Notes under the pieces: model-generated | The model's input: the letters and a program-made list of their open reading frames with translations, nothing else | Told to the model about the DNA's origin: nothing | Database searches by the model: none | Program-made: the position numbers and the translations under genes | Shown: positions 5,358 through 61,162 of the stretch, in pieces | Layout of the letters: every line of letters begins with the position of its first letter | Position numbering within the stretch: the first letter of the stretch is position 1 | DNA from: Deltaproteobacteria bacterium | GTDB lineage: Bacteria > Desulfobacterota > GWC2-55-46 | Reading direction: 5' to 3' | Assembly (NCBI GenBank): GCA_016177845.1 | Contig: JACOUO010000011.1 | Coordinates: 128,326 to 192,325, forward strand | Length of the DNA stretch: 64,000 nt

Positions 5358-6667
5358 CAGCTCTGTGCCTGCGCAGCAACCATCTGCTCGGCTGATTTTT
5401 TTACTCTTGCAGCCTTATCGGTTATAGCCCTGGATACTGATATCAGGGCTATAAGCATGTAGAATATGACCTTTATCTGATCCCAATATGACACGCCCAT
5501 GAACGAGATTATGTGAACAAAGAGTGAAGCGCCCAGGCCCCACATGACTTTTTGCATGGCAGGTGTCTTTTTAAGAGATTTGACAGCCTTGCCGACTGAT
5601 TGAAAAGAATACGAGAGTATTGCTATGAACAGGGCAAGGGTTATCATGCCTCCGTCAACTCCGACCCTTACGAACTGGTTTGTAACATCAAAAAGGTAAT
5701 ACCCCCAGCTGCCGGTGGATTGGACGCCGACAAGCCACCATTCACCGACCCTTTTTATGAACTGGTCGACAAGGTGAAACCTGTGATAGGCGGTTGAGGC
5801 TCCAAAGACTTTTATCTTCATTATAAGCGACCAGACAGGCGCTTTCATAACTATGTGCAGAAATATGAGCGTAAAGACAAGGCCCCATCTGAAAAGCCTC
5901 ATTTGATTTCTGAAGTGCCACATGGTAAGAGCGAAAAAGCCCGCGGCATAGGCGAGGGCAGGGCCGCTTGATGACGAGGTGAGCATTATAAATGTAGCCG
6001 AGATAATGCCTGAGATCATTAAAAAACTGCCGTAGCCTTTCATGTGCCTTAAGTAATAAAACATTGGCACAAGCGCAGCCCCGAAGCTGCCTGCCGTAAT
6101 CGGGTGTCCGAACGCGCCCTGACAGCGCAGCTTCCCATCGCGAATAGGCGTGAATTCAGGCACTCCGCCGAATACGAAAAACGGGTTTCTCCCGGTCCTC
6201 CACTCAATGACCATAGCAATTGCAACAGGAATGCTTATTATCGCAAGGGTCTTTACCACCCAGGCTATGTCATCATAGTCCCTTACGAGAAATCTGACGA
6301 GAAAGTAAATCCCTATAATATCGAATGAGATGCCGAGCCTGTTTATGAACGCGTCCCCGGTGCGCCAAAGCAGGGTATAGGCGACTACGCCTGAGATTAC
6401 ATACCATATCATCACCTTATCTATTTTGTTGAGAGTGATATGGTACTCTGACCTAGTTATTACCCGCAGCCAGCCGAACAGGACAAGAATCCTCAAGATA
6501 TAGAAATCCAGCGAGGCTATCAGTATCCTCTGCTGCATGGGCATAAAAACCACAGCAAACATCAGAGGCACTATCGCAGCCCTTCTCGGCAGTAACAGCA
6601 TGAGAAGTCCTGAAAACAGCGTAAAAGCAAGCGCTGCAGGGTGTATCGGTATTATGTAATGGTCCAT
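5357..6667 (-). CDS. Polytopic membrane protein, O-antigen ligase/Wzy-like (PEP-CTERM-locus 'O-glycosylation ligase'-like)
   Basis: 436 aa with at least 10 predicted TM helices and a large loop containing RNPFFVFGG...RCQGAFGHPITAGSFGAAL, reminiscent of Wzy_C / O-antigen ligase families. Its position inside the EPS locus fits a polymerase/ligase. It could alternatively be a divergent exosortase-associated membrane protein. Confidence 0.5.
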   Translation of the reverse strand: MDHYIIPIHPAALAFTLFSGLLMLLLPRRAAIVPLMFAVVFMPMQQRILIASLDFYILRILVLFGWLRVITRSEYHITLNKIDKVMIWYVISGVVAYTLLWRTGDAFINRLGISFDIIGIYFLVRFLVRDYDDIAWVVKTLAIISIPVAIAMVIEWRTGRNPFFVFGGVPEFTPIRDGKLRCQGAFGHPITAGSFGAALVPMFYYLRHMKGYGSFLMISGIISATFIMLTSSSSGPALAYAAGFFALTMWHFRNQMRLFRWGLVFTLIFLHIVMKAPVWSLIMKIKVFGASTAYHRFHLVDQFIKRVGEWWLVGVQSTGSWGYYLFDVTNQFVRVGVDGGMITLALFIAILSYSFQSVGKAVKSLKKTPAMQKVMWGLGASLFVHIISFMGVSYWDQIKVIFYMLIALISVSRAITDKAARVKKSAEQMVAAQAQS

Positions 6668-31626: not shown

Positions 31627-32400
31627 TCAGAGCTTTCTGAACTGGCGCATGATAAGCGTTGAAAGGAATATCAGGGAGCTTATCAGGATAAAGACAGGCC
31701 CCGGTGAAAGTGAATAGGTGTGCGAGAAGTATATCCCGAAAACCGCTGCTATCACTCCAAAGAATACGCTCCCTGCCATAAAAGCGGTAAGGCTTCTTGC
31801 GATATTTTTTGCTGAAGCTGCCGGGATTATGACAAGAGAGCCCATCAGAAGCGCCCCTACAAAGCGAATCCCCAAGGCGACCGCAAGTGCGAAGCTTAAG
31901 AGGAAAATGAACTCCAGCCTTTTATTATTTATCCCAATGGACTGGGCTATCTCCTGGGAAACCATGTTCAGCGTAAGTTTTTTATAGATTGAAAGAATAG
32001 CGGCTATGAGTATTGCCGAGAGCAGGATTGAGGCCAGTGACTCCTGAATAGTGAGGTCGGTGATATTGCCGAAAAGCGCTTCAATCAGGTCGTGCTCAGG
32101 CATTATGAGCGCACCTATGGCAAGGCTTGCCGTAAAGAATACGCCTACAATGGTCTCAAGAGAAAGCGAACTCCTGTACTCTATAATCCAGATGCCGCAG
32201 ACAGTGAATACAAGAAAGCTTATGGCCCCGATAAAGGGGTCGAATTTGAAAAGTATGGCAAGGGCCATTCCGGGCAATGCCACATGGGAGAGCGCGTCGC
32301 CGACAAGGGCCATCCTCTTTAAAATGGCAAACGAGCCGAGAAGGCTCGCGCTTGCCGCCACAAAGGCGGCAACTATCAAGGGCAGTATTATATCTTGCAT
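31627..32400 (-). CDS. znuB: Metal (Zn/Mn) ABC transporter permease, ZnuB/MntB-like
   Basis: 257 aa, ...LGSFAILKRMALVGDALSHVALPGMALA..., ABC-3 family. Confidence 0.85.
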   Translation of the reverse strand: MQDIILPLIVAAFVAASASLLGSFAILKRMALVGDALSHVALPGMALAILFKFDPFIGAISFLVFTVCGIWIIEYRSSLSLETIVGVFFTASLAIGALIMPEHDLIEALFGNITDLTIQESLASILLSAILIAAILSIYKKLTLNMVSQEIAQSIGINNKRLEFIFLLSFALAVALGIRFVGALLMGSLVIIPAASAKNIARSLTAFMAGSVFFGVIAAVFGIYFSHTYSLSPGPVFILISSLIFLSTLIMRQFRKL

Positions 32401-32401
32401 G

Positions 32402-33133
32402 TTATGTTTTGTGGTTGTGCTGGAAAAACGCTTTTTCTCCGCCGTAAAGCGCCATGAGCTGCTCTGTGCTCAGCACATCCTTCGGAGAGCCGAAGCAGAG
32501 ATTTTTCCTGTTTATGCAAAGTACCGTTGCCGCATGCCTGTAGACGACATTGAGGTCATGGGAGACGAGGATAATGGTAAGCCCAAGGTTCTTCTGAAGA
32601 TGGTAGAGCATCTTGTAGATTGATTCCTGGCCGGCAATGTCTATGTCAGCCGTAGGCTCATCAAAGAGGAGGACATCAGGGGTGCTGAGCACTGCCCAGG
32701 CCACAAGGACCCTTTGCCTCTGTCCTATTGATATCTCGCCAAAGCCCTTCTTCAATATTTTTGGCTCAAGCTGGACAAACTCCAGAACCTCGGCAATCTT
32801 CTTGTCCGTAGCAGATATCCCTCGTAAATGGAAGAATTCCTTTACCGTAAGAGGCACATCGGTCTCTATATCCATCCTCTGAGGCACATATCCTGTTTTG
32901 ATGCCGCGCTGCCAGCTGATTGTGCCTTTATAAGGCACAAGCCCTATAAGTGTCTTTAAAAGCACGGTCTTGCCTGCCCCGTTAGGGCCTATAATGGCAA
33001 GCACCTCGCTTTTATTGACATCGAAATTAAGGTCTTCGAGTATCCTGTTCCCGTTGATCTCTATATTAAGATTTTTGACTTCAAGTATTTTCATGGAATT
33101 TTTAAATATGCAATATTCCCGGCTGCCGGTCAA
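32402..33133 (-). CDS. znuC: Metal ABC transporter ATP-binding protein, ZnuC-like
   Basis: 243 aa with Walker A GPNGAGKT, signature ISIGQRQRV and Walker B LLFDEP. Confidence 0.85.
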   Translation of the reverse strand: MTGSREYCIFKNSMKILEVKNLNIEINGNRILEDLNFDVNKSEVLAIIGPNGAGKTVLLKTLIGLVPYKGTISWQRGIKTGYVPQRMDIETDVPLTVKEFFHLRGISATDKKIAEVLEFVQLEPKILKKGFGEISIGQRQRVLVAWAVLSTPDVLLFDEPTADIDIAGQESIYKMLYHLQKNLGLTIILVSHDLNVVYRHAATVLCINRKNLCFGSPKDVLSTEQLMALYGGEKAFFQHNHKT

Positions 33134-33169: not shown

Positions 33170-33202
33170 CTAATCTTCTTTTAATCTTCAGGACCTTAGA
33201 AT
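33170..33202 (+). promoter_or_regulatory. Promoter with a direct-repeat operator (CTAATCTTC-TTT-TAATCTTC) 7 nt upstream of a TAGAAT -10 element
   Basis: The identical 20-mer CTAATCTTCTTTTAATCTTC also occurs at 36709-36728. A near-identical copy is at 39563-39582. Each has the same 6-7 nt spacing to a -10-like hexamer. Confidence 0.55.
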
Positions 33203-33267
33203 GTTTACATAAATTGCAACACTTAAAAGTATATCAGAAATCCTGCATTCAAAATGGAAAGGGTACT

Positions 33268-33360
33268 ATGGAAAAAAAGATAAAAGCTTTTGATATGTTC
33301 TCAATTTTCATGTTCATATTGAGTGTTGCTGCCTTTGCCGCTGAAATAGCCCTGACCTAA
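33268..33360 (+). CDS. Small hydrophobic peptide (30 aa), first ORF of the cytochrome b561 transcription unit
   Basis: MEKKIKAFDMFSIFMFILSVAAFAAEIALT, with an SD GGAAAGGG 7 nt upstream. It is similar to the 28-aa peptide at 39643 and to small ORFs at 51257-51694. Confidence 0.35.
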   Translation: MEKKIKAFDMFSIFMFILSVAAFAAEIALT

Positions 33361-33445
33361 AATTTTTTTGCTCAATGGTTTAAAAATTATTTGAGTCTTA
33401 ACCCTCCATGTCTTAGAATCTCCATGTAAGGTGGAGATAATTTAA

Positions 33446-34600
33446 ATGAAAATCAAAGTTTGGGATATACCGACCCGTATGTTCCACTGGCTTCTTGTGG
33501 GTGCATACATCGGCGCTTTTTTTACATCTGAGAGCGAATGGTACCTTGAATATCATACCGTCGCGGGCTATATAGCTTTTGGTCTTGTAAGTTTCCGTAT
33601 TCTTTGGGGTTTCAGCGGTAATAAATACGCTCGTTTTTCGGATTTTGTAAAGGGATGGGCCCCTGTTAAGGACTATATAGCCAAAACAGCCCGTCTAAAG
33701 CCGCCGAGGTATCTTGGGCATAATCCTGCCGTAGGCTGGGTCGTTCTTTTCATGCTTTTACTGACCGCTGCCATTACAGTATCAGGCATTATTACCTATT
33801 CCGGGGAAGAGGGCAGGGGCATTTTCTCTTCCTATTTCAGCTATGAGACAGCCGTTTATGCCGAAACGGTCCATCTCTTCCTGACAAAATTTGTTATACT
33901 GATGATAGTGGTGCATGTCTGCGCCGCTCTCTTTCATGATTTTATTTTAAAGGAAAACATAATACTGTCCATGGTAACCGGCACAAAGGAAGATGCCGAG
34001 TCATGGCAGGAGAGGGTGTCGCACCTTAAGCCCGATGAAGGGCGCTCAGCCTTAAGGCTTGGGGTATGGGTCTTTGTCGCCGTGATGGGCGGGCTTGGGC
34101 TTATTTACCTCCCACCCGAAGGGGAAAAAAGCGCCTCCGAGCTTGGGCCGCCTAAGATTATAGATGAAAAAGGCGTTTCAGTGGAATTTACGCCCAATGA
34201 GACATGGAAGGCTGAATGCGCCGCATCATGCCATAACGCATTCCACCCGACACTGCTCCCGGCCCGGTCGTGGAATAAGCTCTCTGAAGGCTTAAGCGAC
34301 CACTTCGGGGATGATGTTACCCTTGACGATGATACAAAAAAGGAGATTTTCGATTACCTTATGGCCTCTTCAGCCGAGCATTCGACCTCAGAGGCTTCGA
34401 CAAAGATACTGCGCTCAATAAAAAAGGGTGATGTTCCGATAAGGATTACTGAGGTGCCGTACTGGAAGGTGAAACATTCTGAAATTAAAGAAGAGGTCTT
34501 CGCCAAAAAGTCTGTTGTAAGCAAAAGTAATTGCGTGGCCTGCCATCCTGGTTCCGAGGTAGGCTCATTCGAAGATAAAGATATACGAATTCCGAATTAA
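33446..34600 (+). CDS. Cytochrome b561 (Ni/Fe-hydrogenase b-type, PF01292-like) fused to a C-terminal periplasmic diheme cytochrome c (DHC) domain
   Basis: The N-terminal 4-TM cyt b carries conserved His residues (MFHWLLVGAY...YHTVAGY...HLFLTKF...HVCAALFHDF). The C-terminal domain has heme motifs CAASCH (a CX3CH variant) and CVACH, and is ~45% identical to the DHC protein at 35069. Confidence 0.8.
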   Translation: MKIKVWDIPTRMFHWLLVGAYIGAFFTSESEWYLEYHTVAGYIAFGLVSFRILWGFSGNKYARFSDFVKGWAPVKDYIAKTARLKPPRYLGHNPAVGWVVLFMLLLTAAITVSGIITYSGEEGRGIFSSYFSYETAVYAETVHLFLTKFVILMIVVHVCAALFHDFILKENIILSMVTGTKEDAESWQERVSHLKPDEGRSALRLGVWVFVAVMGGLGLIYLPPEGEKSASELGPPKIIDEKGVSVEFTPNETWKAECAASCHNAFHPTLLPARSWNKLSEGLSDHFGDDVTLDDDTKKEIFDYLMASSAEHSTSEASTKILRSIKKGDVPIRITEVPYWKVKHSEIKEEVFAKKSVVSKSNCVACHPGSEVGSFEDKDIRIPN

Positions 34601-34614
34601 AAAGGGAGGTTTCA

Positions 34615-35043
34615 ATGAGGAGGAAAATATCTTACCTGCTGGCGCTTGCCGTTTCCATAACTGCTATTGGGACTGGCAGCGCTGATGCAGCCACAAAGCT
34701 CAATCCGCAGATGCAGGCGCTTGTGGATTCATACCAGAAGGAAGCAGGGGTAAAGGCATTCAGCGCAGACGAAGGTAAGAAATTGTTCATGTCAAAGAGA
34801 ATGCACTCGGTAAAGAAAGAGGAGCGCTCATGTACGACATGCCATACTACTAATCCTGCCCAGACAGGCAAGACCGTAGTCGGCAAACCCATTGACCCGA
34901 TTTCCCCTGCGGTTACAAAAGACAGGTTCACGGACCCTAAAAAGGTCGAGAAGTGGTTTAAGAGGAACTGTGAGTGGGTGCTTGAGAGGGAATGCACGCC
35001 CAAGGAAAAGGGCGATTACATTACATTTATGACATCATTATAA
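34615..35043 (+). CDS. DUF1924-family periplasmic mono-heme cytochrome c
   Basis: 142 aa with a signal peptide and a single CTTCH motif. A Trp/Lys-rich C-terminus is as in PF09086 proteins that are genomically coupled to cyt b561 and DHC. Confidence 0.75.
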   Translation: MRRKISYLLALAVSITAIGTGSADAATKLNPQMQALVDSYQKEAGVKAFSADEGKKLFMSKRMHSVKKEERSCTTCHTTNPAQTGKTVVGKPIDPISPAVTKDRFTDPKKVEKWFKRNCEWVLERECTPKEKGDYITFMTSL

Positions 35044-35068
35044 TTATGTAATCTGAAAGGAGACGGAG

Positions 35069-35611
35069 ATGGTACTCAGAAAGACGATAATACCCTTTTT
35101 AGCGGCAGGGTTAATGTTAACCGGGCTTGTCGCAGGCACCGGGTTTGCCGATGAAGATCACAGAGAGAGAGGTGAGAGGCATAGCAGGTATATGCCCAAA
35201 GTCGCTGAAAACGCTACTTACAAACAGGAGTGCTCATCCTGCCATTTCCTTTATCTGCCGGGGCTGCTGCCTGCCCGTTCATGGGAAGCGGTAATGAATA
35301 ACTCCGATAAGCACTTTGGCGAGAACCTTGGGCTTGATGAGAATACCAAAAAGGAGATTACTTCCTTCCTTAAGAATAATTCGGCTGAAAGGACCGATAC
35401 AGAGTGGTCTAATAAGATAATGAGGAGTGTTGGTTCGGCTACCCCGGAGAGGATTACCGAAGTGCCCTGGATAAAAAAGGAGCACAGAAGGATTAAACCT
35501 GAGGTATTCCAGAGGCCTTCCATAGGAAGCTTCTCAAACTGCGGCGCATGCCATACGCAGGGCGCACAGGGAAATTTTGAGGAAGACGCGGTTTCAATCC
35601 CGAAGAAATAA
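35069..35611 (+). CDS. Diheme cytochrome c (DHC family)
   Basis: 180 aa with a signal peptide and two CXXCH motifs (CSSCH, CGACH), paralogous to the C-terminal domain of the preceding b561 fusion. Confidence 0.8.
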   Translation: MVLRKTIIPFLAAGLMLTGLVAGTGFADEDHRERGERHSRYMPKVAENATYKQECSSCHFLYLPGLLPARSWEAVMNNSDKHFGENLGLDENTKKEITSFLKNNSAERTDTEWSNKIMRSVGSATPERITEVPWIKKEHRRIKPEVFQRPSIGSFSNCGACHTQGAQGNFEEDAVSIPKK

Positions 35612-35637
35612 TCTGCTAATATTTAAATTATGGAAGC

Positions 35638-35770
35638 TCTGATTAATTCTCGTTTCTGCTGTCATTGCGAGAAGTGAAACGACGAAGCAATCGCTAACTG
35701 CTTGATTTACCTGAAAACGAGATTGCTTCGCTGCGCTCGCAAAGACTACTCAATGAATTAATCAGAGGTT
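35638..35770. repeat. MITE-like palindromic element with 13-bp terminal inverted repeats (CTCTGATTAATTC / GAATTAATCAGAG) and an internal GTCATTGCGAG...GAAGCAATC palindrome
   Basis: The terminal inverted repeats (TIRs) are read directly. The internal palindrome GTCATTGCGAG-N-GAAGCAATCG / CGAGATTGCTTCG-N-CTCGCAA belongs to the same family as the repeats at 39011-39516. Confidence 0.5.
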
Positions 35771-35790
35771 CCAAGGGGTTGCCCTTTTTT

Positions 35791-36513
35791 TTAAGTAAGT
35801 TTCTTAAGTATTGCCACCTTTATGCCTGTATTTTCAAAATGCGGCAGGAGTATTAAAGGGTTTTCTTTCCTTGTATAGAACTTCGGGTCCTTGGAGAAGA
35901 ATATATCACCTTTGACCTTGGGTTCGGGCTCATCTACAGGGGTGTAGTGAACCGGTATGAATAGAGCAGGGCTTATCACTTTTACCGCCTTTATTATTTC
36001 TTTTGTGTCGATTGCATAGGCGTTATCGCATATCGGAAGTATCGCTACATCCACCCCCTTAAGGGCTTCCATCTCAGCTATGTTGGTAGTATCTCCCGAA
36101 AAGTATATCTTCTGAGTGCCTGTTTCGATAAGGAATCCGCAGCCTTCGCCTTTCATGTGAAACCCTCTTGGCGTATACGCCTCGGTGCCTGTTACCTTTG
36201 CCTGTCCGAAGTCAACGGTCTGCCCTACCTTTATAGTCCTTACTCCTTTTATGTCCTGAACGCAGTATTTTAAATAGCTCTCGTGAAATGCCGCTACCTT
36301 TGTGTTTTCATCCCTTATCGGGCTTATGAACTCCGGCAGGCAGTGGTCAACATGGTGGTGTGTTATAAGGACGAGATCAGCCCTTGGCGGATTGGCGTCA
36401 AGCATGACAGGGTCCGTATAGATAATGTAGCCGTCAGCGGTTGTGATGCGCATTGTGGATTGCCCAAGCCACTCATATTTTATGCCGTTAAAAACGATGC
36501 TTTTGTCTTCCAT
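35791..36513 (-). CDS. MBL-fold metallo-hydrolase
   Basis: 240 aa with an HHHVDHC metal-binding motif. Confidence 0.8.
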   Translation of the reverse strand: MEDKSIVFNGIKYEWLGQSTMRITTADGYIIYTDPVMLDANPPRADLVLITHHHVDHCLPEFISPIRDENTKVAAFHESYLKYCVQDIKGVRTIKVGQTVDFGQAKVTGTEAYTPRGFHMKGEGCGFLIETGTQKIYFSGDTTNIAEMEALKGVDVAILPICDNAYAIDTKEIIKAVKVISPALFIPVHYTPVDEPEPKVKGDIFFSKDPKFYTRKENPLILLPHFENTGIKVAILKKLT

Positions 36514-36708
36514 TCCTTTTTATCCTCCGGGCTATATAAAAGTAGAGTACCTTACGGGCAAATCACCAATTGAATCTTAACAGATGGAAAACCTTAAGCA
36601 AATGATAATTGTTAAAAAATATAAAAATTAAAAAATTGCAGTATAAACATACGGTTACGAAAAATTGACTTGATTTTAAATCGTTCAAAATGGTACTCCT
36701 ATGTACCT

Positions 36709-36740
36709 CTAATCTTCTTTTAATCTTCTGATTGTAAAAT
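36709..36740 (+). promoter_or_regulatory. Promoter with a direct-repeat operator (CTAATCTTC-TTT-TAATCTTC) 6 nt upstream of a TAAAAT -10 element, preceding tlpA-DUF4266-DUF3570
   Basis: Exact 20-mer copy of the element at 33170. Confidence 0.55.
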
Positions 36741-36778
36741 TGTCTGACGAACAACCATTAAAAGAGAGGTCTTAATCT

Positions 36779-37276
36779 ATGAGACTGAAAATAGCTTTGG
36801 CACTTATTTTCATGTTTTGTCTTGCTCCGCTTTCATGGGCAGGCATCACCAACCAAAAGGCTCCTGATTTCAACCTGCAGGACTTAAACGGCAAGACTGT
36901 TACCCTTGAGAGCCTCAAAGGCAAGGTCGTTTTCGTGGATTTCTGGGCAAGCTGGTGCCCTCCGTGCAAAAAGGAACTGCCTGAGCTCAATAAGCTTATG
37001 GATAAGTATAAAGACTCTGATGTTGTAGTGGCGGCGATAAATGTAGATAAGAACAAAGCGCAGGCTGCGGATTTTGTCTCAAAGGTGCCGAACCTTTCCA
37101 AAAAGATGGTTATCCTTCATGATGCCGATTCATTGGTTATCTCGGCTTACAAGGCTAAGGCAATGCCGACATCTTTCGTGCTCGATAAGAACGGTGTTAT
37201 ACGCTATGTGCATTTCGGATATCAGGAGACAGACCCGTTCGCGTGGGTGGATGAGATAAACAAGCTTTTGAAGTGA
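36779..37276 (+). CDS. TlpA/ResA-like periplasmic thiol:disulfide oxidoreductase (thioredoxin fold)
   Basis: 165 aa with a signal peptide and WASWCPPCKKELPEL active site. Confidence 0.85.
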   Translation: MRLKIALALIFMFCLAPLSWAGITNQKAPDFNLQDLNGKTVTLESLKGKVVFVDFWASWCPPCKKELPELNKLMDKYKDSDVVVAAINVDKNKAQAADFVSKVPNLSKKMVILHDADSLVISAYKAKAMPTSFVLDKNGVIRYVHFGYQETDPFAWVDEINKLLK

Positions 37277-37306
37277 TTCCCGGGCATGGTGCCCGAGGAC
37301 TTTTGA

Positions 37307-37546
37307 ATGAAAAAGGAGAGAAGAGCCGTGAAGACCGTATTTTGGGCATTGGCGCTTTGTTTGGTTTTGGGCGCGGCAACAGGATGCGCAAGGGTCAAGC
37401 CTTGGGAAAGGGAGTATCTGGCTAAACCCATAATGCAATATGATTACAACAAAGAAGAAAAAGCTGTCAGGGAGCATTTCCTGGGCACCCGTGAAGGCAG
37501 TGCCGGCAGCTTCGGCGTAAGCGGAGGTGGCTGTGGCTGCAATTAA
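37307..37546 (+). CDS. DUF4266-family small lipoprotein
   Basis: 79 aa with a lipobox LGAATGC and the family-typical C-terminus ...SFGVSGGGCGCN. Confidence 0.7.
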   Translation: MKKERRAVKTVFWALALCLVLGAATGCARVKPWEREYLAKPIMQYDYNKEEKAVREHFLGTREGSAGSFGVSGGGCGCN

Positions 37547-38687
37547 TCTCGTAAAAAGAAGCTTTCTGAAGACTGCTTTCGCAATTGCACTTGTTTCAGC
37601 CCCGTTTGCAACTCAGGCAAATGCTGAGGACTACGCTGCCGCGCAGACTTATTTTCATAGCTTCACCAATAATATCAGCGTCACCTCAGGCGTATTCGCA
37701 CTCAATAAAGATCTATCCATGGATACATCGGCCTATCTGAAATACTCGGTCGATGTAATCAATTCATCGGGCGATGACGAGGGGGGAACCGTAGTGTCCG
37801 GGGCCTCAAGCGCGGCTACCACCGGAGTTTCAGATACCCGTAATGATATTAATCTCGGTTTTACTCATAATTTTAAGAACATCATCGGCCTTGAAGCGTA
37901 CTACGATTACAGCAAAGAGACTGACTACACTTCAAAGACGCCGACAATAACCCTTAAAAAAGACCTTTTTGACAAGAATACGACTTTGTCGCTCGGCTAT
38001 TCGAGGAATGACGATGATATAAGCGGCAAATTTTTAGGCAATACCCAGACAAGGACAACCGATAACTTCTTCCTGGGCGTCACGCAGGTCATCTCCCCGG
38101 TAACTGTTGCCCAGATAGGTTATTCAAGGAGCAACTCAAGGGGCCAGATGTCGGAAGGCATCAGGCTGGTGCCTCTTAACGGGGTAGCCGCAAGCACCTG
38201 TACTGCCGAGTCAGCCACCTGCGTTGATGAAGCGCATCCGTCATCAAGGTATAGGGACGCATATATACTTGGCATCAACCACTATTTCCTCAACAGCCCA
38301 TATGAGTTCCTTGAGGAGTCATCGGTCAAGTTCACGCTACGTTATTACACTGACAGCTGGGATGTTGAGTCATACATGGCTGAGGCAGAGTGGAACAAGT
38401 ACCTTAACGACCGCTTGCTGCTAAGGCTTGATTACAGGTATTACACGCAGACAGCAGCGTATTTTGTAAAAGATATATACACTGCGTCCGATGAGTTCAA
38501 GTCATCTTCTCCTCAGCTTGTAAGCAAGGATACGCAGCTTGCAGGCGTAAAGCTTACTTATGAATTCGAGGAGGATGAATCCTCAGGCATCAGGCTCGGG
38601 TCAATTGAAGGCAAGTATGAAGCGTGGGCAGAATCAACAGATGTATATGCCCATATCATCATGGCCGCAGTAAGGTTCAACTTCTAA
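37527..38687 (+). CDS. DUF3570-family protein (predicted outer-membrane beta-barrel)
   Basis: 386 aa with a signal peptide, alternating beta-strand pattern and a C-terminal ...VRFNF. It is always paired with DUF4266 and overlaps it by 20 nt. Confidence 0.65.
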   Translation: MAVAAINLVKRSFLKTAFAIALVSAPFATQANAEDYAAAQTYFHSFTNNISVTSGVFALNKDLSMDTSAYLKYSVDVINSSGDDEGGTVVSGASSAATTGVSDTRNDINLGFTHNFKNIIGLEAYYDYSKETDYTSKTPTITLKKDLFDKNTTLSLGYSRNDDDISGKFLGNTQTRTTDNFFLGVTQVISPVTVAQIGYSRSNSRGQMSEGIRLVPLNGVAASTCTAESATCVDEAHPSSRYRDAYILGINHYFLNSPYEFLEESSVKFTLRYYTDSWDVESYMAEAEWNKYLNDRLLLRLDYRYYTQTAAYFVKDIYTASDEFKSSSPQLVSKDTQLAGVKLTYEFEEDESSGIRLGSIEGKYEAWAESTDVYAHIIMAAVRFNF

Positions 38688-38710
38688 AACTTTTCTATAT
38701 TTTTAAAAAG

Positions 38711-38745
38711 GGCTGCGGATAACTCCGCAGCCCTTTTTGATTATG
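38711..38745 (+). terminator. Rho-independent terminator after the DUF3570 gene
   Basis: GGGCTGCGGA-TAAC-TCCGCAGCCC followed by TTTTT. Confidence 0.8.
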
Positions 38746-39010
38746 TGGTCTGATTTTGTCTTTACAAAACCCCGAGGGCGTTAATGGTGCGGCAGCCACT
38801 AAGGGAGGAAGGGTGAGCGAGCCGGGGCTGCAGGAGCGTAGCGACTTAAGCTTTGAGGTGAACGGATTGGGGAGGAGCGGGGTTGCGCATCCATTCGCCC
38901 GAAAGAGTCCGGCATGGCGTTAAAGTTAAAACAGCACTGAACACTGATATTTTCTTTCCTTTATCCTGCTCTTTAAAGCTTTGTAGGGTGGGCTGTGCCC
39001 CTAATCAAGC

Positions 39011-39516
39011 TGTCATTCCCGAATGTCTCTGTCGGGAATTTACTTTTAAAAATACTGGATTCCCGCTTTCGCGGGAATGACAATTACTAAACTGTTATTG
39101 CGAACGAAGTGATGCAATCTGATCTGCCTCCAACTGAAAAATAGATTGCTTCGGGCTTAGCCCTCGCAATGACATTTACCCCTTCACCCAGCCCTCTCCC
39201 ACAAGGGGAGAGGGATAAACCGTTATTCCCGAATGTCTCTGTCGGGAATTTACTTTTAAAAATACTGGATTCCCGCTTTCGCGGGAATGACAATTACTAA
39301 ACTGTCATTGCGAACGAAGTGAAGCAATCTGATCTGCCTCCAACTGAAAAATAGATTGCTTCGGGCTTGGCCCTCGCAATGACATTTATCCCCTCAGCCA
39401 GCCCTCTCATTGCTATGCCGTTGTACCATTCAACCCTTGGCCCTCGCAATGAGATTTACCCCTTTACCCAGCCCTCTCCCACAAGAGGAGAGGGAGAAAA
39501 CCGCTGTCATTTACCT
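39011..39516. repeat. Tandem duplication (2.4 copies of a ~210-bp unit) composed of three nested palindromic sub-elements
   Basis: Unit 1 is 39011-39221, unit 2 is 39222-39431, and a partial third copy follows. Sub-elements are:
- GTCATTCCCGA-N-TCGGGAAT...ATTCCCGCTTTCGCGGGAATGAC;
- GTCATTGCGAACGAAGTGATGCAATCT...AGATTGCTTCGGGCTTAGCCCTCGCAATGAC;
- CCCTCTCCCACAAGGGGAGAGGG.
The copies are ~95% identical. Confidence 0.8.
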
Positions 39517-39562
39517 ATTCTCCGTATTTTTTTACAAGACCCCCTTTGATTCATTATCACCT

Positions 39563-39594
39563 CTAATTTTCCCTTAATCTTGAATTCGTATAAT
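39563..39594 (+). promoter_or_regulatory. Promoter with a direct-repeat operator variant (CTAATTTTC-CCT-TAATCTTG) 6 nt upstream of a TATAAT -10 element
   Basis: Third copy of the TAATCTTC direct-repeat architecture. It drives a 28-aa peptide ORF. Confidence 0.5.
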
Positions 39595-39642: not shown

Positions 39643-39729
39643 ATGGAAAACAGGATGAATGAAATCTTTGACATAATTGCCAATCTTGCCGTTGTGATAG
39701 TAATCGTATCAGCGGTCATCATATCCTAA
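39643..39729 (+). CDS. Small hydrophobic peptide (28 aa) in its own promoter-SD-ORF-terminator unit
   Basis: MENRMNEIFDIIANLAVVIVIVSAVIIS, with an SD AAGGAGG 7 nt upstream. A strong terminator follows at 39768-39802. It is paralogous to the peptide at 33268. Confidence 0.4.
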   Translation: MENRMNEIFDIIANLAVVIVIVSAVIIS

Positions 39730-39767
39730 ATCATCCGCATTAAAATCCCGCTCCCCAACCCACCTTC

Positions 39768-39802
39768 AAGGGAGGCCTTTTGGGCCTCCCTTGTCTTTTT
39801 TT
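39768..39802 (+). terminator. Rho-independent terminator
   Basis: AAGGGAGGCC-TTTT-GGGCCTCCCTT followed by GTCTTTTTTT. Confidence 0.8.
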
Positions 39803-39853
39803 GAGATAAACTAAAAAATTGATATGGATACCCGATTTTGTTATTCTTTAAAA

Positions 39854-40843
39854 ATGCGTAAAACATTCCTTTTGTTCCTGACCCTTTTCATATTCATCTC
39901 TTCAAATCCTGCATATGCGGGCAGCTTTAAAAAGAGTACCGTTGTAATGGGTACAGACCTTGAGATGAATCTCGTTGCCGAAGATGAGACGGCTGTCAAC
40001 GCTGCCTTCGATAAGGTTGTCGCAGAGATGAACCGTATCGAAAATGTGATGAGCGAATGGAGGGAAGGCACCAAGGTCTCTGAGATAAACAGGAATGCCG
40101 GGATAAAGCCGGTAGAGGTCACGGAAGAACTTTTTAATCTGATATCAGCTTCCATTCAGGTCTCTGAACTTACGGAAGGGGCTTTTGATATTTCATGGGC
40201 ATCCATGAGGGGGGTGTGGAGCTTTGCAAAGGGGAGCGAGAGGCTTCCCACAGCAGAAGAGATAAAAGAAAGGCTGCCGCTCGTCAATTATAAAAACATA
40301 GAGCTTGATAATGAGAAAAAGACCGTTTACCTCAAGACCAAAGGCATGGCAATCGGCCTTGGAGCAATAGCAAAGGGGTACGCTGTAGACAAGGCTGCCC
40401 AGATACTTTTCAATTCAGGCGTAAGGAACTTTGTGATAAAGGCAGGCGGAGACATGCGCGTCCAAGGCGCTCAGGAGAATGGCAAGCCCTGGCCAATAGG
40501 TATCCGCCATCCGAGGGACAGGGAAAAGTTTATAGCAAAGCTTCATCTTACAAACATCTCGATATCCACCTCAGGCGATTATGAAAGGTTTTTCATCAGG
40601 GACGGCGTCCTTTACCATCATATAATGGACCCCAAAACAGGCTATCCCGCGCGCGGCAGCCAGAGCGTGACCATTATTGCCCATGACACAATGACCTCTG
40701 ACGCCTTCTCAACCGCAATCTTTGTGCTCGGGCCTGAAAAAGGCCTTAAACTTATCAGTAAACTTAAGGGCATTGAAGCTGTTATTGTGGATGACACCGG
40801 TAAGATCAGCGGCTCATCAGGCGTGGATATAAGAACCAAATAA
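39854..40843 (+). CDS. apbE: ApbE-family FAD:protein FMN transferase (periplasmic lipoprotein/secreted)
   Basis: ApbE hallmarks: ...VMGTDLEMNLVAED..., ...GLGAIAKGYAVDKAA..., ...ISTSGDYERFF.... Start chosen at MRKTFLLFLTLFIFISSNPAYAG, a signal peptide. The six-frame ORF begins 30 nt earlier at 39824. Confidence 0.8.
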   Translation: MRKTFLLFLTLFIFISSNPAYAGSFKKSTVVMGTDLEMNLVAEDETAVNAAFDKVVAEMNRIENVMSEWREGTKVSEINRNAGIKPVEVTEELFNLISASIQVSELTEGAFDISWASMRGVWSFAKGSERLPTAEEIKERLPLVNYKNIELDNEKKTVYLKTKGMAIGLGAIAKGYAVDKAAQILFNSGVRNFVIKAGGDMRVQGAQENGKPWPIGIRHPRDREKFIAKLHLTNISISTSGDYERFFIRDGVLYHHIMDPKTGYPARGSQSVTIIAHDTMTSDAFSTAIFVLGPEKGLKLISKLKGIEAVIVDDTGKISGSSGVDIRTK

Positions 40844-56139: not shown

Positions 56140-56252
56140 ATATTAATCTTAGCAGAATTGAGAGTAGATGCTTGAGGGTGAATGATTTGGAAATTCGTTT
56201 TACAATTTTGACTCATTAATAATCTCCTTTTATACTTAGAGGGAGGTAAAAC

Positions 56253-57365
56253 ATGAAAGCACTGCTTTGGAACAAGGATAATGGCTCATTTGTATTTTCT
56301 GATTTTCCTGAGCCGCATATCACTGAGCCTGATGAGGTCAAGGCGCGTGTGATAAGTGTCGGCGTGTGCGGCACTGACAGGGAGGTCTTTGCCCAAAAAG
56401 GGTATCTGCCTCCTGAAGGCAGACATGACCTTATAATCGGGCATGAATCACTGGCTGAGGTGGTTGAGGTAGGAGCAGATGTGAAGGGCCTAAGGACAGG
56501 CGATTATGTGACCTTTACCGTCCGCAGGGGCTGTGACAGGTGCATCCCTTGCAGGACAGGGCGGCCTGATATGTGCGCGACAGGCGGCTATAAAGAGCGC
56601 GGGCTTGATTATATGGACGGTTTCAGCTCTGAGTTCGTAGTCGATAGCCAGATAAACTGCATAAAAGTACCTGTTGAATTGAGAAATCTTGGAGTCCTTT
56701 GCGAGCCCCTTTCGGCAATAGAAAAGGCGCTTCAGGAGATAGAAAGGGCACAGGAGCGTCTGCCTGAGTCAATAACGGAAGTCAATTGGTTCCAGGGCAG
56801 AAGGTGCCTGATTTTGGGGCTCGGCACTATAGGTCTTCTGGCCTCAGTCGCCCTTACTCTAAGGGGGGCTTCTGTTTACGGGCTCGATATAGTGGATGAG
56901 AGCAGCTCAAGGCCTGTCTGGTTCAAAGGCATCGGCGGGCAATATATAAATGAGAAAAAAACGAGATTGGAAAACCTCACCGGGCTTGCAGGCGGCAATT
57001 TCGGGCTGATATTTCAGGCTGCGGGGGTCCCTGATATTTCACTTGAACTGCTTAAAACACTCGGCTCTAACGGGGCGTTCGTATTTTTCTCCGCCGGAGG
57101 CAAAGGCAATATATCAGTAGCAGGAGGCGAGCTGATAAGAAACATCATCGATAATAACCAGACCATTATCGGGGCTGTCAGTTCTTCAAGGGCGCACTTC
57201 GAGCTTGCGGTAAGAGACCTGCAGGCCTCACAACTTAGATGGGGAAGGCATATGGACGGATTGATAACCCATTGCTACCATCCTTCAGAATTAGGGGAGG
57301 TGATAAAAACACACCCGCCTGATGAGATAAAGGCAGTGATTGACTGGAGCGCGCTCAGGAGTTAA
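56253..57365 (+). CDS. Zinc-dependent medium-chain dehydrogenase/reductase (glucose/threonine dehydrogenase-like)
   Basis: 370 aa. ...GVCGTDREVF...GHESLAEVVEVG... contains the catalytic Zn ligands. It also has a Rossmann GLGTIGL motif. Confidence 0.75.
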   Translation: MKALLWNKDNGSFVFSDFPEPHITEPDEVKARVISVGVCGTDREVFAQKGYLPPEGRHDLIIGHESLAEVVEVGADVKGLRTGDYVTFTVRRGCDRCIPCRTGRPDMCATGGYKERGLDYMDGFSSEFVVDSQINCIKVPVELRNLGVLCEPLSAIEKALQEIERAQERLPESITEVNWFQGRRCLILGLGTIGLLASVALTLRGASVYGLDIVDESSSRPVWFKGIGGQYINEKKTRLENLTGLAGGNFGLIFQAAGVPDISLELLKTLGSNGAFVFFSAGGKGNISVAGGELIRNIIDNNQTIIGAVSSSRAHFELAVRDLQASQLRWGRHMDGLITHCYHPSELGEVIKTHPPDEIKAVIDWSALRS

Positions 57366-58756
57366 TCGCTGTTCTTCTTCAGTGATTTTACCGTAATATA
57401 TCCTGCGACAAAAAAGGCGAGGGGAGTTACCGAGAGCAGATTCCTGTTTGTAGCCATGCGGTTTAAGACAAATTCAAAATCGAATGTAGCTGTGTAAACA
57501 AAAAGATATCCCGATATCGCAAGCACGATTATCAAAAAAAGATATTTGATATTGGTATTAAGGAGCGTCTTAAAACCGAGGACAGAGACAAGGGCGAGAA
57601 AAGCAAAGATAAGCCCGTGGTCAACGCTTAAAAATAATTCCCTGAAAAATACGGGCCAGACCTCAAAGTGAAATGTCGGGCTCCACATGAGCGCGCCTGA
57701 TTCGTCAGCCCCTCCTATGCCTGTGCCGTAGCCATGCCCGAACCCAAGCCCGTAATGGCTTTTAAAGATAAACCACGGAAGAAGATACAAAAGGGCCGGC
57801 AGGCCGAAATAAATGAGCCCCTTCCATTTGTATTTCTTCTCAATGACATTAAACGCAAGCAGGGCCAAGCCTGCTGAGAGCAGATGTATCATGCCGTCGC
57901 TTTTGGTAAAACCGGCCATGGCAAAGAAAAGCCCTGAAAGAGGAAGTAAGTTCATCTCATCATGTTCCATGTATCTGAAAAGCAATATGGAACCCGCAAG
58001 GACATTGTACGATAGCGCAAGGTCTGAGTATGCCTCAAAGGAATGGAAGATGAGCAGGGGAGCGGCAGAGACGAAGAAAACGGCGATGAGACCTGCCAAA
58101 AGCCCGCCTTCTTTTTTTATGGCGGTAAAGATTAGCCCGAAAACGCTGATTAAATACAGAGGGGCCCATGCTTTCATAAGGCTTTCATGAAATTCGCCTA
58201 AAAATTCAGATATCCATATCTGGTGCATGAATGTAAGCAGGGGATACCCGAGAATGACCCTGTAGCCTTTACCGAAGAAGTGCTCATCAGCCGGGTCGTC
58301 AATCATCAGGCCTTGATTGTAGTAAAAGAGCTTTGCGCTCCTGTTCCACCATGAGTCCTGCGACATAACAGGCCTGTTGAAGCCTTCGTAAAGGACAATG
58401 GAGACCCTGAAGGCAATCCACGCGATAAGCAGTATTATCAGGATATTTGCGTACATGTCTCGTTTTTCAGAAGGGTTTTTTACTGTATTTTCATGACTTC
58501 CGCGGTACAGGAAGTTCAATATCAACAGTATTGCAAGCGTTACTCCAAGCAGTACCAGTGTAGCCTGAAAAGAATACGGGATACCGAATGCGCCCTGGCA
58601 GAAAAGGCCGAGCGAAAGTATGCCAAAGCCCATCCCGTAGCCTATGAAAATTTTTTCGGCAAGGCTCTGGTCACGCCTTGCGTTCAGAAGCGAGACGAGC
58701 AAAAAGCCCGCGAGGGTCGGAAAGACAAGGGCTGCTGTCAGTTTTATCCACAACAT
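57362..58756 (-). CDS. Polytopic membrane protein of unknown function (possibly GT-C-like)
   Basis: 464 aa with >=11 predicted TM helices. It is co-oriented and contiguous with two further membrane-protein genes. Confidence 0.45.
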   Translation of the reverse strand: MLWIKLTAALVFPTLAGFLLVSLLNARRDQSLAEKIFIGYGMGFGILSLGLFCQGAFGIPYSFQATLVLLGVTLAILLILNFLYRGSHENTVKNPSEKRDMYANILIILLIAWIAFRVSIVLYEGFNRPVMSQDSWWNRSAKLFYYNQGLMIDDPADEHFFGKGYRVILGYPLLTFMHQIWISEFLGEFHESLMKAWAPLYLISVFGLIFTAIKKEGGLLAGLIAVFFVSAAPLLIFHSFEAYSDLALSYNVLAGSILLFRYMEHDEMNLLPLSGLFFAMAGFTKSDGMIHLLSAGLALLAFNVIEKKYKWKGLIYFGLPALLYLLPWFIFKSHYGLGFGHGYGTGIGGADESGALMWSPTFHFEVWPVFFRELFLSVDHGLIFAFLALVSVLGFKTLLNTNIKYLFLIIVLAISGYLFVYTATFDFEFVLNRMATNRNLLSVTPLAFFVAGYITVKSLKKNSD

Positions 58757-59404
58757 CTAATTATCATCCATTATTTTGAATATGTATGCCCCGCTCCTGT
58801 AAGTTGCAAAGAGGCGGGCTTTGAAAACTGAATCGTTCACCCGTAAAATGTTTGTCTCAGGGTCGTACGAAGCGACTGAAAAATCATATACCCAGATGTA
58901 TCTGCCTTTGTTGGATATCATTTTTGGCAGGAGATAATAATTCCCAAGTTTCGTAAGGGTGTGGCTTAAGTCCCACGGGTCTATTTTAATCTCTCTTACC
59001 TGTTCACCTTCGGGGACTGTCTTTCTTACAAAGTCCATGAAATATTTCAGGTCAAAACCTGAAGAGGCGGCAATCCTTTCGTCAATATCCTTGCCGGAAA
59101 ACATCTTTACATCTTTTTTAAACATGGTAAGCCAGTTAAGGTCCATCCTGAGCCCGAAGAGAACACCTGCGAGCATGAATGATACAATGGCGCATTTTGC
59201 GAAATTCTGCTTTGAAAATTGCCTTTTTATAAGAATGGCGGCAATGAAGATCAAAGCCGCTACGGTGAATATGAGTAATGTAAAAGTTATCGGATTGGAA
59301 AGCGGGGGAGAAATATAGTTTATCGTAGAGCCCTTGATGAACTTGGTGTCCCAGAACTCTTGCCAAAGCCCCTGGAATTGAGTGGAGGAAAGTGTTTGCA
59401 GCAT
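58757..59404 (-). CDS. Membrane-anchored hypothetical protein (2 TM + C-terminal soluble domain)
   Basis: 215 aa. No recognisable motifs. Its stop/start abuts the neighbouring membrane-protein genes. Confidence 0.4.
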   Translation of the reverse strand: MLQTLSSTQFQGLWQEFWDTKFIKGSTINYISPPLSNPITFTLLIFTVAALIFIAAILIKRQFSKQNFAKCAIVSFMLAGVLFGLRMDLNWLTMFKKDVKMFSGKDIDERIAASSGFDLKYFMDFVRKTVPEGEQVREIKIDPWDLSHTLTKLGNYYLLPKMISNKGRYIWVYDFSVASYDPETNILRVNDSVFKARLFATYRSGAYIFKIMDDN

Positions 59405-59494
59405 AAAAAAACCTGAGTTTTCAGCTTATGGATTTGACATCGACAGCAAGGAATTATATCAGGTTAAATCAAGGTAAGGCAATATTAATATCTA

Positions 59495-61012
59495 CTACGA
59501 TTTTGAGTTCTTCCGCCCCGTTATTTTTGAGACTAATCTTATGGAGTAGGGGACGAAGTAAATGAAAAGAAAGAACTGTATCCATAATGTGGGAATCTTA
59601 TATCTCTGCACAGGATGGGGGACAATGAACGCAAGCATCAGGTAGTTGGTGATTAAAAATGATGCGAGGAAAAATATCTTAAAGAGTTCCTCTTTGTTTT
59701 TCTCCTGAACAAAATAGGATAAGGCGCCAAAAGCCAGTAAGAAAGTCAGCAGGCCTGCAACCGCAGGCTTTGCCATGAAGGTTTCAATTTTTCCGTAGCC
59801 TCTAATGAGGCTTCCTAATGTGTATGCGCCCACCCTGTCAGCCTGTTTTGAATATAACCTGTATTCCCATGCCTTGACCTTGATATAGCCTCCGAGGTTA
59901 CTGATGCTGGAGCTTACATAATCAAGAGGGTTTGAAAGTATGGCTTCCTTTGCTATTGCCAGCACTATCCTGTCAGCAGTATTGATATCGCACTGAAGCT
60001 CCCTTAAGAGGTCATGGGTGCTGAAGTAATCCGACCCCACAGCATGCGAGCCGTAGAACGAGTCCGCGCTTGCCGCCACTTCAAGGTACTGTTTTTTTGT
60101 ATCTTCGGGTATTTCGCAGCGGATGTTTACGATGAGCTTATAGCCGCCGAGGAAGTTCGCGTACCAGGCCTGCCCATAATCCTGAAGAAGCTCTGCCCTG
60201 TATTGCTTGAATTCGCGCTTCAGTTCAGGCTGCAGGTCTGAGTCCATATCCATGTATTCGGCTGTCTTTATAAGCATATTGACGCCGAATACCCCTACAG
60301 GCTCACCCTTAAACCCGTACTTCCATTCCGAATAATGCTGAAAGCCCGCATTGAGCGCGAAAAAAACCGCAATGTAGAGGGCTGCGGCCTTGGCTGTATT
60401 CAATGCGCCGTCTTGTTTTTTAATGAGCCTGTATAAGAACTGCAGGCTCAAAAAGCCGAAAACCAGGACCAAAAAGATGTTTGCAGTAGGCCTGATAATC
60501 AAGGCTAAAAAGGTGGCAATGGCAAGAGGCGCCATCAGATAGACCTTGCCCGATGAGAAAAACTTCAATATCAGGTACGCGCCTATAAGGATGAAGAAGT
60601 GGCTGAGGAAATCTGAAAGGATAGCGCGCTCAAAGATTAAAAATGTGCCTGCGAGATTTATGCACAGGGCAGCGGCAGCCGCAGTTAACCTGTTTTTAAA
60701 GAATTGCCTGAAGATGAGATAATAGATAAAATATGTGAATGCCCCAAGAAAGTTCTGTGCATAGATAACATAAGTGCGGTCTGTGCTGTCGAATATATTG
60801 TAGATGTAAGAGATAAAGAGAGGATAACCGAGAGGCCGGGTCGGAAGTGTTATCGGAAGCCCGTTGTAGACCTGAAGCGCGAACAGTTCGTATGTTTCGG
60901 AGTCCGGCAATTCAATAAGGCCGAGATAAGAGCAGAGAATAACCCTTACAATAACGGCTATCGAAAAGAATGCAAAATGGATGTACAGGTTTTTAAGCTC
61001 AGGTGTTTTCAT
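59495..61012 (-). CDS. GT-C-fold glycosyltransferase-like membrane protein (ArnT/PMT family 39/83-like)
   Basis: ~505 aa with multiple TM helices. The first periplasmic loop carries ELPDSETYELFALQVYNG, resembling the DE-x-x-Y-A motif of ArnT/PMT enzymes. Start chosen at MKTPELKNLYIHFAFF. The six-frame ORF extends to 61096. Confidence 0.5.
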   Translation of the reverse strand: MKTPELKNLYIHFAFFSIAVIVRVILCSYLGLIELPDSETYELFALQVYNGLPITLPTRPLGYPLFISYIYNIFDSTDRTYVIYAQNFLGAFTYFIYYLIFRQFFKNRLTAAAAALCINLAGTFLIFERAILSDFLSHFFILIGAYLILKFFSSGKVYLMAPLAIATFLALIIRPTANIFLVLVFGFLSLQFLYRLIKKQDGALNTAKAAALYIAVFFALNAGFQHYSEWKYGFKGEPVGVFGVNMLIKTAEYMDMDSDLQPELKREFKQYRAELLQDYGQAWYANFLGGYKLIVNIRCEIPEDTKKQYLEVAASADSFYGSHAVGSDYFSTHDLLRELQCDINTADRIVLAIAKEAILSNPLDYVSSSISNLGGYIKVKAWEYRLYSKQADRVGAYTLGSLIRGYGKIETFMAKPAVAGLLTFLLAFGALSYFVQEKNKEELFKIFFLASFLITNYLMLAFIVPHPVQRYKIPTLWIQFFLFIYFVPYSIRLVSKITGRKNSKS

Positions 61013-61162
61013 ATGAATGAAATTCAATAAACAGATAATAATATTTTGGAATTTCAGAGTCAATCTATATTCATGCGAGCTTAAACGGAATAACACCTTT
61101 ACTTCATGGCAGTTCCTTTGATATATTGACCGGCCCGAATTTTTCAGACTGAAAGGATAATA

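Follow-up and report, generated by a model that had tools for sequence, protein, structure and literature searches.

Closest described systems

Class II promoters controlled by the response regulator PhoB carry pho boxes, tandem repeats with an 11-bp period that take the place of the -35 element, with about 10 bp between the end of the proximal repeat and the -10 core. Three promoters, P1 to P3, in a 64,000-nucleotide (nt) stretch of a Desulfobacterota genome (Deltaproteobacteria bacterium of GWC2-55-46, contig JACOUO010000011.1, positions 128,326 to 192,325; hereafter the window) likewise have tandem repeats with an 11-bp period at the -35 location, but their recognition sequence and regulon differ from those of PhoB. 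P1 precedes a cytochrome operon, P2 an operon for a TlpA-like thioredoxin and the DUF4266 and DUF3570 proteins, and P3 a short unit encoding a peptide of 28 amino acids (aa). Judging by their sequence and position, the three elements are likely to be bound by a response regulator of the OmpR/PhoB family that acts as a dimer, is encoded outside the window, and works by class II activation.

Two other characterized operators are similar. In Corynebacterium glutamicum, CopR binds TGAAGATTTnnTGAAGATTT (PMC3140484). The box is a perfect direct repeat with an 11-bp period, and the reverse complement of TGAAGATTTgaTGAAGATTT, AAATCTTCAtcAAATCTTCA, has the 7-bp core AATCTTC in common with TAATCTTCtttTAATCTTC of the window. 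CopR belongs to the heavy-metal clade of the OmpR family, binds DNA in the phosphorylated form, activates transcription, and autoregulates. However, C. glutamicum is unrelated to the host of the window, and its CopR regulon comprises copper resistance genes (P-type ATPase and multicopper oxidase) with a single site, whereas the targets here are cytochromes, a thioredoxin/flavoprotein operon, and small peptides. The Pseudomonas aeruginosa regulator BqsR, an activator that also autoregulates, binds TTAAG-N6-TTAAG overlapping the -35 element (PMC4358008); the last base of this pentamer differs from that in the window. By analogy, the sites of the window would work like the CopR and BqsR boxes.

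The gene modules behind P1 and P2 are also known. The operon for a fused cytochrome b/membrane diheme cytochrome c (CytB/mDHC), the Sphaeroides heme protein (SHP), and a diheme cytochrome c that is soluble (sDHC), together with its habitual association with a sensor kinase and a regulator, was published in 2010 by Meyer et al. (PMC2909971). The cluster of ApbE, DUF3570, DUF4266, and thioredoxin was reported in 2021 by Méheust et al., and DUF3570 was shown to be flavinylated by ApbE (PMC8238504). The candidacy for a previously undescribed redox system, put forward in a sequence-only reading of the window, is therefore not supported. What is new is the shared operator and the predicted co-regulation of two known modules, and the result amounts to a well-founded prediction of a regulon of a familiar type and not to a novel kind of system.

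Operator sites and promoter geometry

The three promoters comprise the following elements, all on the + strand:
33170..33189, +, operator P1, two TAATCTTC half-sites (exact 20-mer; box shared by orthologous promoters)
33197..33202, +, -10 hexamer TAGAAT of P1 (read in the sequence; predicted start site near 33209)
36709..36728, +, operator P2, the same 20-mer as at P1 (exact match)
36735..36740, +, -10 hexamer TAAAAT of P2 (read in the sequence)
39563..39582, +, operator P3, CTAATTTTCCCTTAATCTTG (mismatch search; orthologous boxes in relatives)
39589..39594, +, -10 hexamer TATAAT of P3 (read in the sequence)

The exact 20-mer CTAATCTTCTTTTAATCTTC thus occurs twice, against a chance expectation of 0.01, and none of 100 dinucleotide-preserving shuffles contained two or more matches. 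The near copy CTAATTTTCCCTTAATCTTG differs from it at 4 positions and is the only other site with no more than 4 mismatches on either strand of the window. Each operator consists of two TAATCTTC-like half-sites 11 bp apart; the pattern TAAT-N7-TAAT occurs 3 times in the 64 kb, and all three occurrences are the operator sites. The operators are intergenic and oriented toward the downstream genes, with gaps of 7, 6, and 6 nt to the -10 hexamers of P1, P2, and P3, respectively. No TTGACA-like hexamer was found at the -35 position of P1, P2, or P3. The copies, their half-site spacing, and their placement 6–7 nt before the -10 hexamers at the -35 location had all been noted in the sequence-only reading, and exact and mismatch searches together with inspection of the sequence bore them out.

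A further candidate, ATAATCTCCTTTTATACTTA at 56219–56238, has 5 mismatches and precedes an alcohol-dehydrogenase-like gene. Because it has neither a second TAAT nor the -10 spacing, and because the start codon is just 15 nt away, it was rejected as probably a chance match. An Rfam scan of the three leaders and the P3 transcript gave no match, and a literature query with TAATCTTC returned only primer sequences.

Conservation in related genomes

A genome scan with CTAATYTTCNNNTAATCTTS, limited to one genome per species, gave at least 120 loci, mostly chance matches in unrelated phyla. Only the 10 of the 120 listed loci that belong to metagenome-assembled genomes (MAGs) of Desulfobacterota or Nitrospirota were informative. 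Among the matches listed, TAnnnT was located 6–7 nt downstream of the box in 7 of these 10 versus 4 of the 110 others (Fisher p = 6e-7). One of the ten, L023, is syntenic with the window (CytB/DHC, DUF1924, DHC, an opposing beta-lactamase-fold gene, the box, and TlpA), with protein identities of 50–64%, and the alignment of the regions upstream of TlpA has no long conserved block other than the 21-nt box. A search for DUF3570 homologues added eight loci (L153, L155, L156, L158, L161, L163, L174, and L173), seven of them broadly syntenic with the window; L173, from Nitrospirae, is more distant.

The box with a 6–7 nt gap to the -10 hexamer was found at P1 in 6 genomes (the window, L155, L156, L158, L161, and L174), at P2 in 9 (the window, L023, L153, L155, L156, L158, L161, L163, and L174), and at P3 in 5 (the window, L155, L156, L158, and L174); the P3 box is absent from L161. 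The operator type suggested previously to link the cytochrome, TlpA-DUF4266-DUF3570, and small-peptide units is therefore conserved at the same promoters in relatives. Compilation of 28 sites yielded tTC-TAAT-ctTc-cyT-TAAT-sTTc-N6/7-TAtAaT, with TAAT-N7-TAAT present in 28 of 28 and the -10 hexamer conserved at 6–7 nt. The intergenic DNA around the boxes has diverged among the relatives.

These data bear on the possibility that the repeats are elements for an alternative sigma factor, or remnants of a dispersed repeat or mobile element. The 20-mers of P1 and P2 are identical, which could suggest a recent duplication, and the region at 38.75–39.55 kb beside P3 is rich in dispersed repeats. On the other hand, the similarity among the three copies is confined to about 36 nt (repeat family D3), and the boxes occupy orthologous positions in genomes with protein identities of about 50–60%. 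Since the P1, P2, and P3 boxes of the relatives differ from one another yet retain TAAT-N7-TAAT, recent duplication fails to explain the identical 20-mers of the window. The 11-bp tandem spacing combined with a sigma-70-like -10 hexamer is unlike the -35/-10 pairs of extracytoplasmic function (ECF) sigma factors. No copies were found within genes of the window. Both variants of this explanation are highly improbable.

Another explanation is that the sites are operators of a repressor that occludes the -35/spacer region, the genes being expressed once it departs. The repeats would lie at about -38 to -19, within the core promoter, and some OmpR-family proteins repress from comparable positions. 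However, a good -10 hexamer was present in all 28 compiled promoters and a usable -35 hexamer in none, which is the signature of activator dependence, and the nearest characterized boxes, those of BqsR and CopR, mediate activation and positive autoregulation. Repression is thus unlikely, and we infer activation instead.

A stricter-pattern scan of metagenomes returned a heterogeneous set, in which L150 and L152 duplicate L093; several further matches have a -10 hexamer, with downstream genes that are unrelated or unknown, and were left out of the evidence. As a separate observation, exact TCTAATCTTCTTTTAATCTTC with a -10 hexamer was found in unrelated metagenome contigs (L123, L129, and L143, all from human gut, and L024, L126, and L133). 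Some of these copies precede a lipoprotein and a Ser/Thr kinase gene, and in others the half-site is repeated three times in tandem. Use of this box by related regulators may extend well beyond this lineage.

Candidate regulator

No receiver-domain, response-regulator, or kinase gene was found in the window by a Pfam search of the flanking open reading frames (ORFs) or by tblastn with the regulators of relatives, in agreement with the earlier statement that the cognate regulator is not obvious there. In other genomes, the motif-first scan placed the box before the following genes:
L032: PepSY protein, cytochrome b561, OmpR-family regulator
L093: PepSY protein, cytochrome b561, OmpR-family regulator, histidine kinase
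L060: DUF5666 protein, cytochrome b, regulator
L031: regulator
L040 (Desulfobacterota MAG, box with three tandem half-sites): CheY-like receiver ORF, DegP/HtrA protease
L044 (Desulfobacterota MAG, -10 hexamer missing at the usual 6–7 nt): DegP/HtrA-type protease

The box before DegP/HtrA genes in L040 and L044 hints that the regulon is an envelope-stress response. In the reverse, gene-first test, the L093 regulator served as the query, and three orthologues were taken without regard to the motif. The cytochrome b561-response regulator-histidine kinase operon of L164-166 is preceded by TAATCCCCCTTTAATCTTC, 7 nt, and TACAAT; the regulator-kinase operon of L170-172 is preceded by TAATAATATTTTAATGTTC, 7 nt, and TATAAT; and L167-169 carry a degenerate 11-bp repeat.

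A PepSY domain (PF03413) is encoded by the leading gene of both the L093 and the L032 operon. PepSY is not universal, since L060 has DUF5666 and L164 and L170 have none. Operons of this kind resemble BqsPQRS/DbfQRS, a BqsR-type module with PepSY genes now known to be widespread, in their predicted autoregulation and in having genes for small secreted PepSY proteins upstream of the regulator and kinase (PMC4358008, PMC12714742). Unlike BqsPQRS/DbfQRS, they include a gene for cytochrome b561, and three of the four box-associated kinases examined lack the RExxE motif with which BqsS senses Fe(II). SHP operons usually carry Orf1/RR/SK1 genes, and their SK1 sensor is defined by SGVYWQ and RSRSLWD-like motifs (PMC2909971). 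The periplasmic domain of the box-associated kinases, all from other genomes, contains SGHY[YF]Q in 4 of 4 and RSPSL in 3 of 4 (not in L167), and LSGHYYQ/RSPSL are variants of the SK1 motifs.

The best model for the regulator was TIGR01387 (heavy-metal response regulator), followed by the CusR and HprR models, and the best model for the kinase was TIGR01386 (227.4 bits, below the cut-off of 292.55). The genes preceded by the box encode cytochromes, TlpA/DUF4266/DUF3570, small peptides, PepSY or DUF5666 proteins, and DegP; no metal-efflux or detoxification genes were seen among them. The resistance-nodulation-division (RND) pump near the third unit of the window has its own TetR regulator and no box. 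Since the scores are below the cut-offs and none of the targets seen is a metal-resistance gene, membership in a named heavy-metal family is not established. Sequence comparison nevertheless makes it likely that the regulator is an autoregulated OmpR-family activator nearest to the CopR/CusR/HprR clade. The OmpR/PhoB-type response regulator named as the expected class in the sequence-only reading agrees with this comparative genomics.

The boxes could also be real but belong to a family member other than the clade linked to cytochrome b561 and PepSY, for example, a PmrA/QseB-like regulator (YTTAAK-N5-YTTAAK). The invariant bases in the 28-site compilation, (T)YTAAT-N5-TTTAAT, resemble the PmrA/BasR box. 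But both the motif-first and the gene-first searches found the box before cytochrome b561-regulator-kinase operons, and the regulator scores higher against the CopR/CusR/HprR models than against PmrA or QseB, which makes such a family member very unlikely.

Proposed mechanism

According to the activation model, two TAAT-centered half-sites, one helical turn apart, would bind a regulator dimer. Relative to the start site they would be located at about -37 to -34 and -26 to -23 and stand in for the missing -35 element, and the phosphorylated regulator would recruit sigma-70 RNA polymerase, as at the PhoB, BqsR, and CopR boxes. The regulator would be encoded outside the window; in the relatives, its putative gene lies beside that for a histidine kinase with a periplasmic LSGHYYQ/RSPSL sensor domain of the "SK1" type and usually behind the genes for cytochrome b561 and a small secreted PepSY or DUF5666 protein. 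The same box before the regulator operon would make it autoregulated. In the window, P1 would turn on pep1, encoding a small peptide, and the CytB/mDHC-SHP-sDHC periplasmic heme chain, P2 the TlpA-DUF4266-DUF3570 thiol/flavin envelope module, and P3 a short terminated transcript encoding the 28-aa membrane peptide. What is sensed is probably a metal or redox cue in the periplasm, because the box is CopR-like, the kinase is of the heavy-metal type, and DegP and thiol-reducing proteins are among the targets; our confidence in this assignment is low.

Several findings weigh against class II activation by this regulator. A site at -38 to -19 could in principle repress. The window contains neither the regulator nor the kinase, and the regulator link rests on other genomes. 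The two regulator scores, 245.8 and 252.0 bits, are lower than the TIGR01387 cut-off of 279.2, and the regulator falls below the cut-off of every named family. Membership in the regulon is variable: P1 of L023 has no box and carries Fur/Zur-type palindromes, L153 carries half of a box at P1 and lacks the one at P3, and the Nitrospirae locus L173 has no box at all.

That the SHP/DHC/cytochrome b chain shares one two-component operator with the flavinylated DUF3570 system suggests that both respond to the same periplasmic signal, probably metal or oxidant. The 19-bp box provides a handle for listing the regulon in any genome of the lineage and for reporter-based tests of the signal. In addition, the "SK1" sensor/regulator pairs associated with SHP operons across many proteobacteria can now be assigned a DNA motif.

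Cytochrome operon behind P1

The unit downstream of P1 consists of the following features:
33268..33360, +, pep1, a 30-aa single-helix peptide, first in the operon (annotated as a gene on the matching assembly contig, L001)
33446..34600, +, cytochrome b561 fused to a membrane diheme cytochrome c, the CytB/mDHC chimera (PF01292 and PF09626)
34615..35043, +, SHP-type monoheme cytochrome c, DUF1924 (PF09086; PDB 1dw0, E 2.8e-24; CTTCH)
35069..35611, +, soluble diheme cytochrome c, DHC or sDHC (PF09626; PDB 2fw5, E 2.5e-26; two CxxCH)
35773..35787, +, terminator-like hairpin ending the operon

DUF1924 is the SHP family, and the matches to Pfam and to PDB entries 1dw0 and 2fw5 therefore identify this unit as a CytB/mDHC chimera-SHP-sDHC operon (PMC2909971). 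The three components occur together in the arrangement of the Rhodobacter sphaeroides SHP operon. In contrast to the published systems, the regulatory genes are not adjacent in the window, a gene for a 30-aa peptide leads the operon, and an operator, previously undefined for SHP systems, is present. Pfam supported the earlier gene calls, with small corrections: the first peptide is encoded at 33268–33360, and the third unit is terminated before apbE.

The pep1 gene also leads the operon in five other genomes, and in four of these the box lies upstream of it. The pattern [FLI]D[LM][LF]SI..F..SVA is present in L153, L155, L156, and L158, of which L153 is the one without a preceding box. No family match to pep1 was found in Pfam; the peptide probably acts as a small membrane subunit or as a modulator. 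In the fused DHC domain, the first heme site is CAASCH (CX3CH) instead of CxxCH (about residues 263–268, window positions 34230–34250). Its L023 equivalent is CGASCH, and the stand-alone DHC has two normal CxxCH motifs.

TlpA-DUF4266-DUF3570 operon behind P2

The second unit comprises three genes and a terminator:
36779..37276, +, TlpA-like periplasmic thioredoxin (Redoxin, AhpC-TSA, and Thioredoxin families; CPPC at residue 60)
37307..37546, +, DUF4266 lipoprotein (PF14086; C-terminal CGC, a CXC motif)
37527..38687, +, DUF3570 protein, predicted substrate of ApbE flavinylation (PF12094; SGAS at residue 91)
38705..38738, +, terminator hairpin ending the operon (perfect 15-nt inverted repeat I10; terminator-like in the Rfam scan)

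Together with ApbE, this unit matches the published flavinylation cluster: all four components are present in the window, DUF3570 with SGAS, DUF4266 with the C-terminal CXC, which had already been reported, and the thioredoxin with CPPC (PMC8238504). Unlike the DUF3570 of that paper, for which two [ST]GA[ST] motifs are reported, the protein encoded here has one. DsbD is not encoded in the window but is present at the Nitrospirae locus L173, and the regulatory tie to a two-component system and the SHP operon is not in the paper.

Third unit and apbE

Downstream of P3, the following features were identified:
39643..39729, +, pep3, a 28-aa hydrophobic peptide (AGGAGG ribosome-binding site)
39746..39766, +, C-rich stretch TCCCGCTCCCCAACCCACCTT, predicted unpaired (near-invariant in four genomes)
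39767..39802, +, strong intrinsic terminator of the P3 transcript (12-pair stem at 39767–39793 and T-run; hairpin conserved in four sequences)
39839..39847, +, extended -10 element TGtTATTCT of a predicted separate promoter for apbE (ATG at 39854, 6 nt downstream)
39854..40843, +, ApbE flavin transferase (PF02424; likely true start from comparison of the N-terminus with orthologues, ORF-finder start 39824)

The sequence-only reading had included ApbE in the third unit. From the sequence we conclude that P3 would yield a short stand-alone transcript ending at the conserved terminator. The element TGnTATnnT followed by 6–7 nt and ATG was found at apbE in the window, L155, L156, L158, and L174, and in none of these five does apbE have a Shine-Dalgarno sequence. 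The conserved extended -10 element next to the ATG and the missing Shine-Dalgarno sequence therefore suggest a leaderless mRNA; most likely, as far as the sequence indicates, apbE is transcribed separately from its own extended -10 promoter. The start given by the ORF finder, 39824, probably lies 30 nt upstream of the true one. ApbE belongs functionally with DUF3570, but P3 probably does not drive its gene.

An attenuator of apbE formed by P3 and the terminator was considered and rejected as the main interpretation, given the extended -10 element directly before the apbE ATG, the lack of an apbE Shine-Dalgarno sequence, and the second box-peptide-terminator unit of L174, which is not beside apbE. 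That unit (L174, 12348–12533, - strand) has a fourth box, TAATATCCCCTTAATCTCC, followed by 7 nt, TATAAT, a 29-aa pep3 paralogue, and a strong terminator. Pep3 itself is conserved in L174, which thus has two box-driven pep3 paralogues, and the fourth box unit indicates a family of box-controlled mini-proteins.

In L155, L156, and L158, a P3-type promoter and the 3' end, consisting of TCCCGCTCCCCARCCCRCCTT, the hairpin, and the T-run, are kept, and the pep3 ORF is absent. In some genomes the ORF may have been lost and a non-coding RNA left, in which the invariant C-rich unpaired 20-nt stretch is retained. The pep3-type peptides might tentatively be regarded as a family of 28–32-aa single-helix peptides, each with its own box promoter and terminator, that could exert MgrB-like feedback on the kinase, with the transcript possibly acting as a dual-function small RNA; with the SHP heme chain and flavinylated DUF3570, they might form an envelope metal/redox stress response so far undescribed in anaerobes. 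This whole scheme is doubtful. Separately, the 21-nt C-rich segment before the P3 terminator in the window, like its equivalents in L155, L156, and L158, resembles the seed region of a small RNA. A search of the window for targets of this stretch gave only self-matches and short chance matches.

Neighboring DNA

The units are flanked by genes assigned with Pfam:
35791-36513, -, metallo-beta-lactamase-fold protein
from 40943, +, TetR regulator, then the RND pump

Between the DUF3570 terminator and P3, about 800 bp (38750–39550) are occupied by dispersed and tandem repeats. A 192-nt sequence occurs twice here, the copies being 210 nt apart, a 64-nt element occurs three times, and there are GC-rich hairpins such as ATTCCCGCGAAAGCGGGAAT. 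Orthologous intergenic regions span only about 230–340 bp and lack these repeats, and the segment therefore looks like an insertion resembling repetitive extragenic palindromes (REP) or miniature inverted-repeat transposable elements (MITE).

Palindromes of the form ATGCAAC...GTTGCAT were found in L023 (4100–4200), L155 (about 5660–5700), and L158 (about 5940–5980), where they separate the cytochrome operon from a divergent fur-family gene that is followed by znuACB. Of these genes, the window retains only znuC (32402–33133, - strand) and znuB (31627–32400, - strand), and fur and znuA are absent. Farther away, at 57362–61096 on the - strand, three consecutive long ORFs encode proteins of 464, 215, and 533 aa with no Pfam match at E <= 1e-4.

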